The translations under genes and the position numbers were made by a program. DNA of 64,000 nucleotides, taken from the sequence record PV191315.1; one strand, 5' to 3'. Under the pieces are notes generated by a model. That model ran no database searches. It saw only the letters and a list, made by a program, of their open reading frames with translations, and was not told the DNA's origin. Below, piece after piece: positions 58,770 to 64,000 of this stretch. Origin of the DNA: Escherichia phage vB_EcoM-P3322. The first letter of the stretch is position 1. Each line of letters starts with the position of its first letter.

Positions 58770-59042
58770 TTAAAGCAAAAACGCTACATCTTGCGCTTTT
58801 AGTGTAGTATCAACCATTTTCGGGCTTTTATAATCAACAAAGCGCGCGGTTTTTTCAATAGCGAAACCGAGATAATCTTGCTTGTTGAAATTACATTCTT
58901 TCTTAAATGTTTCCCGTGCAATGGCAATCGCTGCGTCCAGGGATAAACGCCCGTCAATATTGATATTAGCGAAAGATCCGCCACCGCTCATAGGTTTACC
59001 AGTGGTGCCAGCTACGATCATTGTTGCGCTATATGATGCCAT
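58770..59042 (-). CDS. hypothetical protein
   Basis: RBS AGAAGAGAGATTA. Confidence 0.6.
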   Translation of the reverse strand: MASYSATMIVAGTTGKPMSGGGSFANINIDGRLSLDAAIAIARETFKKECNFNKQDYLGFAIEKTARFVDYKSPKMVDTTLKAQDVAFLL

Positions 59043-59064
59043 GATGATAATCTCTCTTCTGTTA

Positions 59065-59128
59065 CGAGCGGGAAACCACTTCCCGCCCTATGTGATACAT
59101 CTTATCAGGTTGTTGTTTGTTGTCAATA
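59065..59128 (-). promoter_or_regulatory. PeSL-like unit
   Basis: hairpin agcgggaaaccacttcccgccc; rc TTGACA at 59121-59126. Confidence 0.65.
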
Positions 59129-59132
59129 CTTT

Positions 59133-59330
59133 TTATTCTATCCCTGCAATTTGATTAACGCGCTTGCATTTTGTAGCGTGCTGGTCTTCTGTAATGACTC
59201 CCATTTCTAACAGGGAATCAATGAAAGATAAAACCGTTTCATGATCATCCTGGGGATGACTGAACTCAGTAAAACCGTTTACTATTACGTTGATTTGTCC
59301 AGCTTTCGCCACAATATGCAATGTTGCCAT
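59133..59330 (-). CDS. hypothetical protein
   Basis: RBS TGGAG; long GC-rich leader upstream. Confidence 0.55.
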   Translation of the reverse strand: MATLHIVAKAGQINVIVNGFTEFSHPQDDHETVLSFIDSLLEMGVITEDQHATKCKRVNQIAGIE

Positions 59331-59603
59331 GATCTTAACTCCAGGTGATGAATGATGTTTTTTGTTGGTGGACGGTGGATTATGGAGATCCTCACCTTTG
59401 CCCGTCCTGCATTGCGCCCTCCTGTTGTTTATTGTCGTTGTGCCGCGCCCCCCTCGACAAGATGAATACTACGCTACCAGGCGAGGAACGTCAACCACTT
59501 TTTCAATCTTTTTTATTTTCTTTTTGCTTGCTATATATAAAGGAAAGGGCTATCATCTTTCTACCGCGCCAACCAGGGCGCACAACAAAGAAAGGGCGAC
59601 ACC

Positions 59604-59870
59604 ATGACAAATACTACATTACACCTTATGCACTCATTGGGCTGGCAAGGCGGCACGGTGCACCAGGTAGCAAGCGCAACGGGCTTAAAGGTTGAAACAG
59701 TTCTCAACCTGGGCGATCATAAGGTGGAAGAGATAGACCATTTTGATCCGTTCGCTGATGGTTATTTATGGGCTTGCAGTGGCGGCGGGGAAAGCAAGAT
59801 CCCACCAGGGGCGCGGGGCGATATGCATTTTTGGTTAGGTGTCCTTTCCTGGCAAGAAAACAAAAAATAA
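59604..59870 (+). CDS. hypothetical protein (isolated + strand ORF in GC-rich island)
   Basis: Track ORF with non-repetitive sequence; weak RBS. Confidence 0.3.
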   Translation: MTNTTLHLMHSLGWQGGTVHQVASATGLKVETVLNLGDHKVEEIDHFDPFADGYLWACSGGGESKIPPGARGDMHFWLGVLSWQENKK

Positions 59871-59872
59871 TC

Positions 59873-59901
59873 TTGACAAGCCCAGGGATCGGGCTTATAC
59901 T
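59873..59901 (+). promoter_or_regulatory. strong sigma70-like promoter with palindromic spacer, no downstream ORF
   Basis: TTGACA-17nt-TATACT; spacer agccc-agggatc-gggct. Confidence 0.55.
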
Positions 59902-59907
59902 GTTTTA

Positions 59908-60010
59908 CATACAGAAGAGGAAGCGCCACCCCACGGCGTAAAGGCGGGGCTAACATACCAGGGCGCTGGTTGGAAGGTTGATCGCCGGTAGGCTGGGCGC
60001 TATATATTTG
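59908..60010 (+). ncRNA. candidate small structured RNA
   Basis: GC-rich transcript from consensus promoter; no credible ORF; boundaries approximate. Confidence 0.25.
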
Positions 60011-60119
60011 TAAAGAAATGTAAAGATAAAATAATCGCTTGCTTTCCTGGCTGGATCTGTTATTCTTATTACATGGCGAGGGGACACGGGAGCGCGAGAC
60101 AAACACCGCCCCTGCGCGT

Positions 60120-60500
60120 CATTCTCTAAATGAGAATGATTATCATTTACCTTATCAAATAAGAATCAATCTCATTTATAAACCTAAATGCGAATCATTA
60201 TCATTTGCATTTCCATATGAGAACTCTTCTCATTCCCATCTGCATAAATTTTTGTAAACTTTAAATTTTGCTTTTGTACTTTCATTTTTGTAAAAGCAAA
60301 AAAACTTTAAATACTGTGGGCGCGCAAAATTTTTAAAATTTTCCTTGACTTTTGAGTTTTGTTTTGTATCTAACATTTTAAGATAATTTTCCTAAACTTT
60401 AAATTTTGGTTTTCAACTTTCACTTTTGTAAATTCTTAAAAAGTTTAAATAATTTGAGGAATTTTTGAGATAACAAGTAGGGGTAATTTGAGATAACCTT
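60120..60500. repeat. AT-rich iteron cluster
   Basis: Direct repeats aaactttaaattttgNttttNNactttcaNttttgtaaa x2; aatgattatcattt x2; tttgagataac x2. Confidence 0.5.
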
Positions 60501-60593
60501 TAATCTTATTGGCAGACCTTCAGGAACCCACCTAGATCGAATCCTAATGATGCAAACTGAAAAAGATAAGTGTTTGTATAGGACAAAATAATA

Positions 60594-60626
60594 GGCTCTC
60601 TACAGTGTTGTAGGAGCCTTATTTCT
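60594..60626 (-). terminator. bidirectional hairpin terminator downstream of NADAR gene
   Basis: ggctc-t-ctaca-gtgt-tgtag-gagcc flanked by T-rich runs on both strands. Confidence 0.55.
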
Positions 60627-60674
60627 GTGCTACAAAGTGACACCTTTGTTCTAAAAATGAAAAAAGTTAAAATA

Positions 60675-61217
60675 TCACAAATATCGTCTTTGCGGTATTT
60701 TGTCTGGGAAAAGTATTTCGATCAGTTTGTTATGATATTTGCCTAAAAGATTCTGCCCTTTCCAGGTGGCAGGGTTTAGCACCCCTGGTTCATACATCCC
60801 CATTCCAATTCCGTAAACCTTATCGTAGGGGCTTGCTTCAACAAACGTTTTGTATTGGTAAAGGTGTAAGTCTGCATACAAATCTGGATTCTGTACATAT
60901 TTCAAGCATAAACCTCGCATAACAATACGCTCACGGTTCTCTTCCCATACGTTGTTATCAAAATCCGACACTGCCCTACCCATACGTTTGTAATAAGCTT
61001 GGATCTTCTCATCTTTCCGTATCAAACTATGAGTCAGAATAGCCTGTGCAGTGTTGTGGTCATTAAAAAGCAAAGCTTTACGCCACATCATGTATTGTTC
61101 GACACAATTAAATGTCTGATTGTAACCTGGTTCGGTTTCTGTAAAGGGTGCAATATACCAATTACTAAAAACATCTTTATGTGAAAAGAAGAATACATAT
61201 TCGTCAGTTATTCTCAT
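60675..61217 (-). CDS. NADAR-domain (YbiA-like) protein
   Basis: 180 aa; N-terminal FFFSH..FSNWY and central NCVEQYMMWRKALLF resemble the NADAR/DUF1768 signature (recall only). Confidence 0.6.
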   Translation of the reverse strand: MRITDEYVFFFSHKDVFSNWYIAPFTETEPGYNQTFNCVEQYMMWRKALLFNDHNTAQAILTHSLIRKDEKIQAYYKRMGRAVSDFDNNVWEENRERIVMRGLCLKYVQNPDLYADLHLYQYKTFVEASPYDKVYGIGMGMYEPGVLNPATWKGQNLLGKYHNKLIEILFPDKIPQRRYL

Positions 61218-61393
61218 TTTTTCATACCTTCTAAGACTTTAGCTTGCCCGTCTTGAAAAGCTTTCATCAGAACTATCTTAAGATTGACTTCCAAGCGTTC
61301 TTCATCCTCTTTATAACAATCCAACACTGCTTTAAGTTCATCATAGTGGTTCAGAATAGGTTTAAAGATTTCATGATCTGCTAAACGTGCCAT
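61214..61393 (-). CDS. hypothetical protein
   Basis: ATG 61393 after AAAGGAGAAAC; track start 61429 overlaps next gene. Confidence 0.5.
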   Translation of the reverse strand: MARLADHEIFKPILNHYDELKAVLDCYKEDEERLEVNLKIVLMKAFQDGQAKVLEGMKK

Positions 61394-61406
61394 AGTTTCT
61401 CCTTTG

Positions 61407-61772
61407 TTAATCCATCCACCAGTAGCCATAAACTGCGTCTGCGTCGATTAGTTTGTGTTTGTTGTTCCGCATGTAGTCTAAGATAAGTAGGCGTTTATTG
61501 TATCTGGAGAGATTATGACCCTCTTTTCCGCCATAGTCAAAATATTTTGCAAGATCTTTGCACTCAAACAAAATTAGTTCGGGAGTTTCTTCACACTGGT
61601 CTGTCTGGTACACTTGACGAATGATCATGTATACATCGTCGTCTTCCGCTAAATGCTCTACTGGTCCACATCCAGCAGGAACAAATTCATAGTCCCATCT
61701 GATCAGATGTTTCTCTACTGCTTCAAAGAAGTCCATTCTTTCGTTGCGCATAATTTGAACGTCAACTAACAT
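61407..61772 (-). CDS. hypothetical protein
   Basis: RBS CAGGAGGAAAC. Confidence 0.6.
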   Translation of the reverse strand: MLVDVQIMRNERMDFFEAVEKHLIRWDYEFVPAGCGPVEHLAEDDDVYMIIRQVYQTDQCEETPELILFECKDLAKYFDYGGKEGHNLSRYNKRLLILDYMRNNKHKLIDADAVYGYWWMD

Positions 61773-62755
61773 GTTTCCTCCTGTAATGTTCCACCATAAA
61801 GTTTATAAATGTTTTGTATTGAGGCCATGCAAGATAACTCTACTGTTTCTGTGTAGCCATCTGGCATAGAATATTTGCTCACTGCTTCCGTGTGAAGGAC
61901 ACGCTTACAACGCTTTTCTGCATCTTTGCATTGCTTCACAGTAGGGAAGTGCCACACTTGGCTCTGTTTCATAGTAAACACATTATGACTATTTTGTTCT
62001 TTGATACGGCGATCACTACTATTGGCAATACCAAACTTCAAAGCACAGAGAAGATTTTGTTCATCGTAGATATAGTTGATGTATGCCTGTTGTTGTGTAT
62101 GCCCTTTACACTTCGGACAACCACGCCCCTTATGTAATAAGTGGTCAGCATTCCCTATTTGCTCCCCGTGATCCTTACATCCATATTTAAACTCTCCTGT
62201 TGAGGAAGGTTTACTAATCCACTCTATCCAGATATATCCTTTACTTTCTAAACCTTTTCTCACCTTGTAAGTGATCTGATCTTTTGTATAACGGTAAACT
62301 CTAGTACAACGACAAGGGATAATCCCTTTTTTAAGATCGTTCCCTGCAATGTAAAATTTACCATCACACACTCCTGCTTGTACGTATTCATCATGAGAAC
62401 AAACAGGACATTCAACCATCCAGAGAATATGACTCCCTTTACGTTTGCCTGTATTGGTGAAAATGGTACCAGGTTTAAACTTTCCTGTGTTAATGAAATC
62501 TTTTATGTGCTGATCGTCTGTCTTACCTCCTTTCCCAAATCCTTTCCCAATTGCACAGACAGGACAACCAGCACGACCAGTTTTAAAGTTTTTAAATGTT
62601 GTAGTGTTCCATTCATGAGCATACTGACAACGATTGATCATTTTCGTGTGTTGTCCTGTAAACGGCTCAACAATTCCAATAATCTCAATCCCTTTAGCAG
62701 CAGCAATAGGTTGACACTCTTCAATATATTGTTCAATACTCTTCTTTACTGGCAT
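61766..62755 (-). CDS. multi-zinc-ribbon protein with C-terminal T5orf172/GIY-YIG-like domain (possible homing-endonuclease-like)
   Basis: Repeated CPVC/CPKC motifs; C-terminal YINYIYDEQNLLCALKFGIANSSDRRIKEQ; ATG 62755 after AGGGAGA. Confidence 0.5.
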   Translation of the reverse strand: MPVKKSIEQYIEECQPIAAAKGIEIIGIVEPFTGQHTKMINRCQYAHEWNTTTFKNFKTGRAGCPVCAIGKGFGKGGKTDDQHIKDFINTGKFKPGTIFTNTGKRKGSHILWMVECPVCSHDEYVQAGVCDGKFYIAGNDLKKGIIPCRCTRVYRYTKDQITYKVRKGLESKGYIWIEWISKPSSTGEFKYGCKDHGEQIGNADHLLHKGRGCPKCKGHTQQQAYINYIYDEQNLLCALKFGIANSSDRRIKEQNSHNVFTMKQSQVWHFPTVKQCKDAEKRCKRVLHTEAVSKYSMPDGYTETVELSCMASIQNIYKLYGGTLQEETC

Positions 62756-62796
62756 ATCTAACAATTATCTCCCTGTTAAACTGAAATCAATATAAC

Positions 62797-62815
62797 AAAA
62801 CCCGCCGAAGCGGGT
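62797..62815 (-). terminator. rho-independent terminator (minus strand)
   Basis: aaaa-cccgc-cgaa-gcggg on + strand. Confidence 0.65.
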
Positions 62816-62833
62816 TTAGCTATTTGTGCTGTA

Positions 62834-63973
62834 TCAGAATACGCTACCCAGGGTAGTGGAACGTTGTGTTACAGGCTCCAGCACCACTCGCAGAGTGTTT
62901 CCTGGTGTAGTGCTCATAACCAGAATCTTACCACCTTCAATCAGATCACAAGTTAGACCATCAGCCGTTGCACATAGATCAATATGTGGATCACCATCTT
63001 CATCCAGGATAACATAACTGTTGGTTTCCATTGCTTCCACTTCATCATCTTTCAAACTTTGTAGATAGATGTTCAGGGAACAAGCACCCGACAAAAACTT
63101 AGTAGGGGTGAAGTCGTGCCAGTTATTGATCCAATTCACCTTCAGCGTTTTGCCATTAGCTACGATAGAAGCCACATTCCATTTAGCATCGTTGCCTAAA
63201 GAAATACCCATCATTTCAAGACATTCTTTAAAAGTCATTTTTGGATAGAAATTCAATTCTTCTACAATACCTTGAATAACATCGAAAGACAACTCTGTGC
63301 TAACATCCCATAAACGTTGGAAGTTATCTACGTGTTTTTTATTTACCAAGTTCTTATCCAAGTAATCTAACATAGTTTCACTAGACAGTTTATCGTAATT
63401 GAAACTGTAATAGATACGACTAGGACGGTTTACAAAATATTCCGAGATATAACCACTATTTTTAGTTAGGATGTAAAGTTTATTCCCACTTCCTGTTCCA
63501 TCCAACAAGGTCAACAGTGCTTCCTGATCTTCTTTCTTAGCGTACACTTTATCAAATTCGTCAAATAAAACAACAGCACGATCTGTAATTTTACTCATAA
63601 ATTCTAAGAAGCCAGCATCTGTGTAAGGCTGTGTAACCAAAATGGTTGGAATACCTAAACCTTCTGTGGACATTAGGGACATGCTAATTAGTTTAGCTAA
63701 CATCGTCTTACCACTGCCTTTTGTGCCTGTCAGTAACACCCCAGTATTTTTACCTTCTTTACTACGACGAGCAAATGTTTTAATAACATGTGCGGCGCGG
63801 TCTTTAGTTTCCCCATAAAGAGTGTTCGGAAGAGAGAAACTTTCGCCACGCACTAAAGAGTAGTTACCGTGCGGATCGCAGTTGACAACCCAAACTCCAG
63901 CAGGAAGTTTATTAGCTTCAACACCATATTCCTTATTTACAACAGCCACATCTCCAAAAATAGTGTATTTCAT
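62834..63973 (-). CDS. AAA+/P-loop ATPase (possibly clamp-loader/RFC-like)
   Basis: Walker A GTKGSGKT, Walker B VVLFDEFD; motif order resembles T4 gp44 (recall only); RBS AAAGGAGAAAC. Confidence 0.6.
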   Translation of the reverse strand: MKYTIFGDVAVVNKEYGVEANKLPAGVWVVNCDPHGNYSLVRGESFSLPNTLYGETKDRAAHVIKTFARRSKEGKNTGVLLTGTKGSGKTMLAKLISMSLMSTEGLGIPTILVTQPYTDAGFLEFMSKITDRAVVLFDEFDKVYAKKEDQEALLTLLDGTGSGNKLYILTKNSGYISEYFVNRPSRIYYSFNYDKLSSETMLDYLDKNLVNKKHVDNFQRLWDVSTELSFDVIQGIVEELNFYPKMTFKECLEMMGISLGNDAKWNVASIVANGKTLKVNWINNWHDFTPTKFLSGACSLNIYLQSLKDDEVEAMETNSYVILDEDGDPHIDLCATADGLTCDLIEGGKILVMSTTPGNTLRVVLEPVTQRSTTLGSVF

Positions 63974-64000
63974 TAGAACGTTTCTCCTTTTAAAATAATT

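Follow-up and report, generated by a model that had tools for sequence, protein, structure and literature searches.

CapR, a repressor encoded by the PLE satellite, carries a zinc-finger domain (CxxC...CxC) that binds DNA through its Cys ligands and is related to the N-terminal domains of putative homing endonucleases of phage ICP1 that end in a T5orf172 domain (PMC8096241). Barth et al. surveyed 229 T5orf172 homing endonuclease genes (HEGs) in 2023 and reported that 87% of them carry CapR, DUF723 or DUF4397 zinc fingers, that these fingers are often repeated and undergo recombination between repeats and domain swapping, and that the genes adjoin essential genes and mark boundaries of genetic exchange (PMC10448857). 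For one T5orf172 protein, ICP1 Odn, nuclease activity dependent on a conserved Glu has been demonstrated experimentally (PMC8263062). Here we analyse a gene at 61766..62755, on the minus strand, in a 64,000-nucleotide (nt) stretch of Escherichia phage vB_EcoM-P3322 (PV191315.1; the whole stretch is referred to as the window). The gene belongs to the already described class of putative phage HEGs that combine CapR with T5orf172 (Netter 2021; Barth 2023), so that the 'homing-endonuclease-like' nature suggested for it in an earlier note, made from the sequence without database searches, corresponds to a published class (PMC8096241, PMC10448857). Its alleles are old and have been exchanged as a cassette with sharp borders within a nearly identical genomic backbone. 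We interpret the gene as encoding a free-standing, modular, site-specific endonuclease of the CapR plus T5orf172 homing-type class that replaces rival alleles, an interpretation to which we give a probability of about 0.6.

Domain architecture of the encoded protein

The open reading frame (ORF) encodes 329 amino acids (aa) between an ATG at 62755 and a TAG stop at 61766-61768, as the earlier note had placed it. The RefSeq protein of phage tuntematon (YP_009986429.1, annotated 'endonuclease'), which is 98.8% identical to the 329-aa protein, starts at a TTG equivalent to the in-frame position 62764 and so has 332 aa; because the homologues all start at a Met equivalent to 62755, we preferred the latter start. 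The 329-aa protein is matched by the PHROG 681 'endonuclease' profile (E=1.8e-63), and several GenBank and RefSeq records already label the gene 'endonuclease' or 'putative homing endonuclease'. The features of the protein are the following:

61766..62755, minus strand: complete coding sequence (CDS), 329 aa, with three CapR-type zinc-finger modules and a C-terminal T5orf172-like domain
62552..62719, minus strand: CapR module 1, aa 13-68 (25.5 bits, E=1.5e-5; ligands C43, H47, C64, C67)
62303..62503, minus strand: CapR module 2, aa 85-151 (56.6 bits, E=3.1e-15; ligands C116, C119, C148, C150)
62105..62278, minus strand: CapR module 3, aa 160-217 (20.2 bits, E=6.7e-4; ligands C193, H196, C213, C216)
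61787..62092, minus strand: T5orf172-like/GIY-YIG-fold nuclease domain, aa 222-323 (conserved Y225, K240, G242, R250, Q254, E280, D299, G300, E303)

In a Pfam search with the full protein, the CapR homology domain (PF21817, gathering cut-off 24.2 bits) was matched over three stretches, with a total of 78.5 bits (E=4.5e-22). When the modules were tested separately, module 3 scored under the cut-off (20.2 vs 24.2 bits), and module 2 aligned end to end with the Pfam model of CapR, the repressor of the Vibrio cholerae satellite PLE; the region of module 1 also gave a weak DUF4379 treble-clef match. CPxC motifs are located at aa 64 (CPVC), 116 (CPVC) and 213 (CPKC), and the earlier note had counted at least three zinc-ribbon repeats of this type; the profile matches and the separate tests identify them as three CapR-homology zinc-finger modules, each with a four-ligand zinc site (C43/H47/C64/C67, C116/C119/C148/C150 and C193/H196/C213/C216). 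Among 30 homologues, C116, C119, C148, C150, C193, C213 and C216 are invariant and C43, C64, C67 and H196 are at least 90% conserved, and H47 is absent from the conserved columns. Module 2 shows the CxxC...CxC arrangement of CapR, as C116-x2-C119-x28-C148-x-C150, the spacing of 28 between the Cys pairs being slightly above the published 24-26; in modules 1 and 3 the ligands follow a variant pattern, C-x(2-3)-H ... CPxC. When modules 1 and 3 were compared directly by BLASTP, only the GCPxC knuckle was shared, and the repeat relationship of the modules therefore rests on the profile matches. By analogy with CapR, for which data from electrophoretic mobility shift assays and Cys mutants have been published (PMC8096241), the modules would be expected to bind DNA. 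The copy number of the module-1-type module varies from 1 to 3 between alleles.

The C-terminal segment that the earlier note had compared with T5orf172/GIY-YIG domains, YINYIYDEQN...KFGIANSSDRRIKEQ, corresponds to aa 225-254. T5orf172 (PF10544, cut-off 20) was matched with 16.3 bits (E=0.014) by the full protein and with 18.6 bits (E=0.0027) by the domain alone, and MUG113 (PF13455, cut-off 22.3) with 17.3 bits (E=0.007) and 20.0 bits (E=0.001), respectively. Neither family appears in the precomputed Pfam annotation of any of 47 homologues, whose labels are CapR, DUF723 or DUF4379 only. The C-terminus of an ICP1 protein is 41% identical to the domain over 120 aa (E=2e-23), and this ICP1 protein contains CapR together with T5orf172 at 21.1 bits, above the Pfam cut-off. 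Within the family, 11 of 17 C-terminal domains match T5orf172 (best E=4.3e-6) and 9 of 17 match MUG113. In homologues down to approximately 20% identity, no substitution occurs at G242, R250, E280, D299 or G300, and conservation is 90% or higher at Y225, K240, Q254 and E303. An AlphaFold2 (AF2) model of the domain (predicted local distance difference test (pLDDT) 92.6, predicted template modelling score (pTM) 0.85) has the beta-beta-alpha-beta-alpha topology that forms the core of the GIY-YIG fold. Of the catalytic residues conserved in such enzymes, the Tyr of strand 1 corresponds to Y225, the Arg of helix 1 to R250 and the Glu to E280/E303, and the second motif is K240-F-G242, the T5orf172 form, instead of Y-I-G. 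The ICP1 homology, the family profile matches, the fold and the conserved residues are four independent lines of evidence for a divergent T5orf172/GIY-YIG-superfamily domain in the C-terminal ~110 residues, as had been supposed, with its nuclease-type residues retained. The eight-residue spacing between G242 and R250 equals what we take to be the spacing between G19 and R27 of I-TevI, and Q254 presumably falls at the position of I-TevI H31, both on residue counts rather than superposition; the Glu matching I-TevI E75 and Odn E180 was likewise assigned by topology and the presumed I-TevI sequence, not by superposition.

The full-length AF2 model has a mean pLDDT of 90.9 and a pTM of 0.51, with pLDDT dips at aa 61-80, which contain a Gly-rich linker (aa 68-78), and ahead of the C-terminal domain; this pTM would be expected of independently folded domains arranged as beads on a string. 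In the model the CapR modules look alpha-beta-beta-beta-alpha, an observation on which we base no claim. A Foldseek search of the full-length model against the PDB was uninformative, the best matches (E=7e-3) being tandem double-stranded RNA-binding domain proteins, as might be expected of such a multi-domain string. Sequence and profile searches of the PDB returned nothing meaningful (bL31 zinc ribbon, E=0.04; adenylate kinase, E=0.15), and NCBIfam gave a sub-threshold YnfU zinc match alone.

Among described systems, direct homology links the protein to ICP1 Gp53, Gp121, Gp130, Gp165 and Gp174, which have the same N-terminal CapR repeats and C-terminal T5orf172 (PMC8096241, PMC10448857): the CapR modules align and the nuclease domain is 41% identical. 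The ICP1 genes and the window gene also have in common a variable repeat number, domain shuffling between alleles and a position beside a conserved gene, at a boundary of genetic exchange. Unlike the ICP1 genes, which form a paralogue family and are variably present, the window gene belongs to a lineage of Stephanstirmvirinae coliphages, is single-copy in most relatives and occupies one constant site in all the relatives' loci that were read. PLE CapR is a 15.5 kDa repressor that resembles the N-terminal domains of the HEGs only, whereas the window protein has three modules and an apparently intact nuclease domain. ICP1 Odn (Gp88), like the window protein, has a T5orf172 domain with conserved Arg and Glu and without the helix-1 His/Tyr, and in both the nuclease is fused modularly to a DNA-binding domain of a presumably sequence-specific kind (PMC8263062); in Odn this is a RepA_N domain captured from the satellite target and serving an anti-satellite role, whereas the DNA-binding part here is CapR-type. 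SLX1 and URI-domain GIY-YIG nucleases resemble the C-terminal domain at the fold level only (10-13% sequence identity); SLX1 is otherwise unlike the window protein, being a eukaryotic nuclease that acts in repair, carries a RING/PHD finger and has SLX4 as its partner. The likeness to I-TevI and the T4 Seg enzymes consists of a GIY-YIG-fold catalytic domain linked to a modular DNA-binding region that includes a zinc finger, and of a free-standing gene between conserved genes, for which repair-mediated co-conversion of the flanks is expected. The domain order is reversed, the nuclease being N-terminal in I-TevI and C-terminal here; the I-TevI motif is GIY...YIG, whereas the window protein has the T5orf172 variant Y...K-F-G...R...E; and I-TevI binds DNA with a zinc finger, a minor-groove helix and a helix-turn-helix, in place of which the window protein has its three CapR modules. 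We regard this architecture and family assignment as highly probable.

Exchange of old alleles at a fixed site

The region 60500-64000 is 99.1% identical to that of Escherichia phage tuntematon (Phapecoctavirus, Stephanstirmvirinae) and matches 71 phage records, nearly all of which are phAPEC8-like coliphages. The nuclease gene is flanked and bordered by the following features:

62834..63973, minus strand: AAA-type ATPase gene, 379 aa, upstream neighbour (PHROG 2376, E=3.9e-111)
61407..61772, minus strand: 121-aa ORF, downstream neighbour (PHROG 24465), with a 7-nt overlap between its start and the nuclease stop
62834..62858, minus strand: upstream border, formed by the final 25 nt of the ATPase gene, where synonymous differences cluster
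62798..62817, minus strand: terminator-like G+C hairpin with a trailing T-rich tail, in the spacer separating the nuclease gene from the ATPase stop
61766..61782, minus strand: downstream border, last 17 nt of the CDS, ACAGGAGGAAACATGTTAG, with the Shine-Dalgarno sequence and ATG of the 121-aa ORF

The position next to the ATPase gene, pointed out in the earlier note, is a constant feature. In all seven Phapecoctavirus loci that were read (tuntematon, phAPEC8, ESCO5, ZCKP1, ESCO37, vB_Ec-G1 and SKA64), a homologue lies between the ATPase gene and the 121-aa ORF with its stop overlapping the downstream start; the ATPase gene is likewise followed directly by a homologue in phage outra, of the sister genus Justusliebigvirus. 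The ATPase itself is conserved in many large myoviruses, and a place beside such a gene is typical of free-standing HEGs (PMC10448857); that the ATPase is essential is our assumption. Most relatives gave a single tblastn match per genome and a few records gave two, and no paralogue was detected within the window when all ORFs of at least 70 aa were searched with phmmer. The GC content of the gene (39.0%, window 38.9%) gives no mark of foreign origin.

Across the seven loci, the ATPase protein is 100% identical and the protein of the 121-aa ORF 99-100% identical, and the identities of the nuclease protein are 98.8, 75.6, 74.8, 71.6, 61.6, 37.5 and 37.5%. The alleles carry one, two or three N-terminal modules and accordingly encode proteins of 326 to 486 aa, and the DNA-binding part is more variable between alleles than the nuclease part. 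The same picture was obtained database-wide: 62 phage records contain the ATPase at an aa identity of 99% or higher, and the nuclease has at least 95% identity in 4 records, 80-90% in 1, 60-80% in 34 and less than 60% in the rest.

Sliding identity profiles located the borders of the variable segment. DNA identity in the flanks is 97-100% and drops exactly at the ATPase stop; it recovers at ~62050, in the part coding for the nuclease domain, for the phAPEC8, ESCO5, EcG1 and SKA64 alleles, and only at 61782 for the ZCKP1 and ESCO37 alleles, for which DNA similarity is undetectable over 61783-62828 between flanks that are 94-98% identical. Downstream, ACAGGAGGAAACATGTTAG shows no difference in six relatives, the ZCKP1-type allele included, and its identity in all alleles accounts for the conserved ...EETC C-terminus. 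Upstream, 3-6 synonymous differences per relative are concentrated in 62834-62858, vs 0-10 in the preceding 275 nt; they include TGA/TAA stop variants and form a separate haplotype for each class of nuclease allele, and this variation may mark a junction left by recombination or a polymorphism that confers immunity at a target site. The hairpin at 62798-62817 belongs to the variable cassette, with a different hairpin in other alleles, and a terminator is annotated at the corresponding site of phAPEC8.

Synonymous divergence (dS, Nei-Gojobori) is 0.75-2.5 in the DNA-binding part, 0.2-0.46 in the nuclease part and 0.07-0.10 in the ATPase gene, the dS of the nuclease gene being ~10-25 times that of the ATPase gene. 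The ratio of nonsynonymous to synonymous divergence (dN/dS) is 0.15-0.30 throughout (0.23-0.30 in the DNA-binding part and 0.15-0.24 in the nuclease domain), and the ORFs are intact in all alleles. The high dS together with the low dN/dS indicates that the alleles are far older than the divergence of the backbone and are under purifying selection, which excludes both decay and purely local diversifying selection; the contrast in dS with the flanks indicates that old alleles were moved by recombination into near-identical genomes. In addition, the nuclease identity is lower for the ZCKP1-type allele (37%) than for the Justusliebigvirus allele (57%), even though the ATPase of that sister genus is only 65% identical, which is a direct incongruence between gene and backbone. 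Horizontal transfer with sharp borders (61782 and ~62834-62858), as is characteristic of HEGs, was thus found at this locus.

Two further sets of homologues were noted. Among Justusliebigvirus homologues (P0017, P0020, P0022, P0025, P0027 and P0028; locus L008, 4716-5888), the nuclease domains are nearly identical and the protein length changes in steps of ~325, 390 and 465 aa, corresponding to 1, 2 and 3 N-terminal CapR modules, which suggests that recombination between modules has expanded or contracted the repeats. Salmonella phage SalP219 (PP595732.1, Seunavirus) encodes a 411-aa homologue (locus L010, 3164-4399) that resembles the window protein only in the last zinc module and the nuclease domain (aa 193-322, 41% identity) and has a different N-terminal CapR/DUF723 region; its gene stands at an unrelated locus, the only one on the plus strand within a block of minus-strand genes. 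This protein exemplifies domain shuffling and transfer between lineages.

Proposed mechanism and alternative explanations

In the mechanism that we propose, the three tandem CapR modules, flexibly linked, would together read an extended DNA site, and the C-terminal GIY-YIG-fold domain would cut nearby DNA by means of its conserved Tyr, Arg and Glu. On co-infection with a related phage bearing a different allele, cleavage would occur in or near the locus, and the rival genome would then acquire the entire cassette by recombinational repair; this cassette would consist of the terminator, ribosome-binding site (RBS) and ORF, with the stop codon of the ATPase gene as one boundary and the RBS of the next gene as the other. 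That the protein binds and cleaves DNA, where its target lies and that a homing drive operates are all inferred. That the protein is an active sequence-specific nuclease is our prediction and seems probable; whether it currently behaves as a selfish homing element is, in our estimate, evenly balanced.

Several observations weigh against this homing interpretation. The protein's own T5orf172 and MUG113 scores fall under the Pfam gathering thresholds, the second canonical GIY-YIG Tyr is replaced by Lys/Phe, and the helix-1 His/Tyr is Gln, a deviation at helix 1 that Odn shares (PMC8263062). HEGs are sporadically present and absent, and no clean empty site was found in 70 records, the site being occupied in all seven Phapecoctavirus loci and in the sister genus; such fixed occupancy would fit equally well with a gene that is kept because the phage benefits from it. 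Finally, the 7-nt overlap links the nuclease translationally to the downstream ORF and suggests operon integration.

Empty sites were searched for with an 800-nt chimera joining 400 nt of the left flank to 400 nt of the right flank. In most of the 70 records the flanks matched as two separate places, which fits an occupied site (at least ~1 kb between them), and a contiguous junction was present in one, Escherichia phage vB_EcoM_EP57 (OR544956.1). The EP57 junction (locus L011, 3380-3440) deletes 61786-62843 (1058 nt), so that the ATPase gene loses its final three codons and its stop and is fused to the 121-aa ORF in a 501-aa CDS. The 130.7-kb record has further deletions nearby, at 60473-60595 and 60910-61281, and also contains many tiny annotated CDSs. 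Because the end of the ATPase is removed and the record has several other deletions, we rejected EP57 as a genuine HEG-minus site and regard its gap as a non-specific deletion in a deletion-rich isolate or an assembly problem, not as an ancestral empty site. The comparison of presence and absence proposed in the earlier note gave occupancy in all eight relatives' loci, yet with clear horizontal replacement of alleles: the mobile element suspected there holds as cassette and allele exchange at a fixed site but not as presence/absence mobility, EP57 alone lacking the gene.

The main rival explanation is that the nuclease has been domesticated and is kept for the benefit of the phage, its allelic diversity being maintained by arms-race or frequency-dependent selection and not by selfish drive; such a protein could be a weapon of phage-phage competition or exclusion, an Odn-like anti-satellite nuclease or a nuclease acting on host DNA. 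We consider this possible but clearly not the favoured outcome. It would agree with the constant site in every Phapecoctavirus locus read and in Justusliebigvirus, with the flank spacing in most of the 70 records, with ORFs intact in all alleles at a dN/dS of 0.23-0.30, and with a nuclease stop that overlaps the RBS and ATG of the downstream gene, and domesticated T5orf172 nucleases have precedents, including the RepA_N-T5orf172 proteins of the related coliphages Inny, Muut and Mt1B1_P17 (PMC10448857, PMC8263062). However, the DNA-binding modules are the generic CapR type of putative HEGs and are not borrowed from a recognisable target as RepA_N is, and PADLOC returned no match for the nuclease. 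Moreover, a homing element with rival alleles would also yield fixation and allele competition, so that the data do not separate the two readings, which overlap if rival alleles cut each other.

A second alternative, that the protein is a sequence-specific DNA-binding regulator that has lost cleavage, controlling transcription near the ATPase and early genes as a CapR-like repressor or an I-TevI-like autorepressor, appears improbable. CapR is itself a repressor derived from the DNA-binding domain of such a HEG and I-TevI moonlights as an autorepressor (PMC8096241), and the hidden Markov model scores of the nuclease domain are sub-threshold in the window protein. Nevertheless, this domain is full-length and confidently folded in the AF2 model, R250 and E280 are invariant and Y225 and E303 near-invariant down to ~20% identity, and the domain is under purifying selection (dN/dS 0.15-0.24). 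PLE CapR, at 15.5 kDa, corresponds to the N-terminal domains of the HEGs only (PMC8096241), so that loss or degradation of the nuclease domain would be expected in a pure regulator. In-place diversifying selection on a vertically inherited gene, with no horizontal exchange, would account for the syntenic locus in every relative read and for the greater variability of the DNA-binding part, but it is effectively refuted by a dS of 0.75-2.5 next to an ATPase gene at 0.07-0.10 and by dN/dS below 1, and it is further contradicted by the sharp borders at 61782 and ~62834, the ZCKP1-type allele more distant than that of a sister genus and the shifts in module copy number from 1 to 3, with no sign of a diversity-generating mechanism or a local mutational hot spot.

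A more speculative proposal, which we hold doubtful, is that the ATPase-proximal locus of Stephanstirmvirinae is a permanently occupied 'allelic battleground' in which rival cassettes with re-assortable CapR modules cut genomes carrying another allele. If so, the synonymous cluster at the end of the ATPase gene (62834-62858) would represent an immunity or target polymorphism, the gene would persist through allele competition instead of the classical HEG cycle of invasion, decay and loss, and the natural alleles with one to three modules would provide a readable recognition code of CapR fingers.

The practical value of the analysis lies in better annotation, the GIY-YIG-fold C-terminus of T5orf172 type justifying the RefSeq name 'endonuclease'. 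With E=0.007-0.014, the window protein would fail the E<=0.001 screen of PMC10448857, whose text and supplements make no mention of the phAPEC8-type locus, and Pfam screens for T5orf172 HEGs at this threshold miss its sub-family. The class is nonetheless very large in public data, the family profile finding 25,010 cluster representatives (50% identity) at E<=0.001 and 1,316 at E<=1e-30. The locus is a clean natural example of nuclease genes marking the boundaries of genetic exchange, with a 1-kb cassette of ancient alleles set between highly conserved genes in a genus used in collections for phage therapy and biocontrol; if the alleles exclude one another, the design of phage cocktails would be affected, since related phages infecting the same cell may cut one another. 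Efforts to decode DNA recognition by CapR fingers could likewise benefit from the module series. A specialist would find no surprise in any of this; the most interesting aspect of the gene is the clean exchange of allelic cassettes at a fixed site.

Neighbouring features

Homologues of the ATPase (PHROG 2376) with 27-45% identity are found in many large myoviruses of Gram-positive and Gram-negative hosts, including phages of Bacillus, Enterococcus and Staphylococcus and jumbo enterobacterial phages, and in some records the protein is named 'Hda-like regulatory inactivator' or 'FtsH-like protease'. A promoter scan gave nothing exceeding the shuffled expectation, and Rfam returned no match in 59000-64000. 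On the other side of the 121-aa ORF, 60675-61217 (minus strand) encodes a 180-aa NADAR-domain protein (PF08719, E=7.8e-36), which is called 'GTP cyclohydrolase II' in several related phage records, probably a mis-annotation.

The adjacent stretch 59900-60670 is ORF-poor and AT-rich (35% GC), with repeats at 60126-60234 and 60247-60456 and no match to Rfam, and its counterpart in tuntematon is annotated 'repeat_region' only. It contains three palindromic units of ~22 nt (AAATGAGAAT..ATT.TCATTT) at a spacing of 29 nt, and two 72-nt direct repeats that are 82% identical and lie 138 nt apart. The arrangement looks iteron- or operator-like and could be an origin or a promoter cluster.

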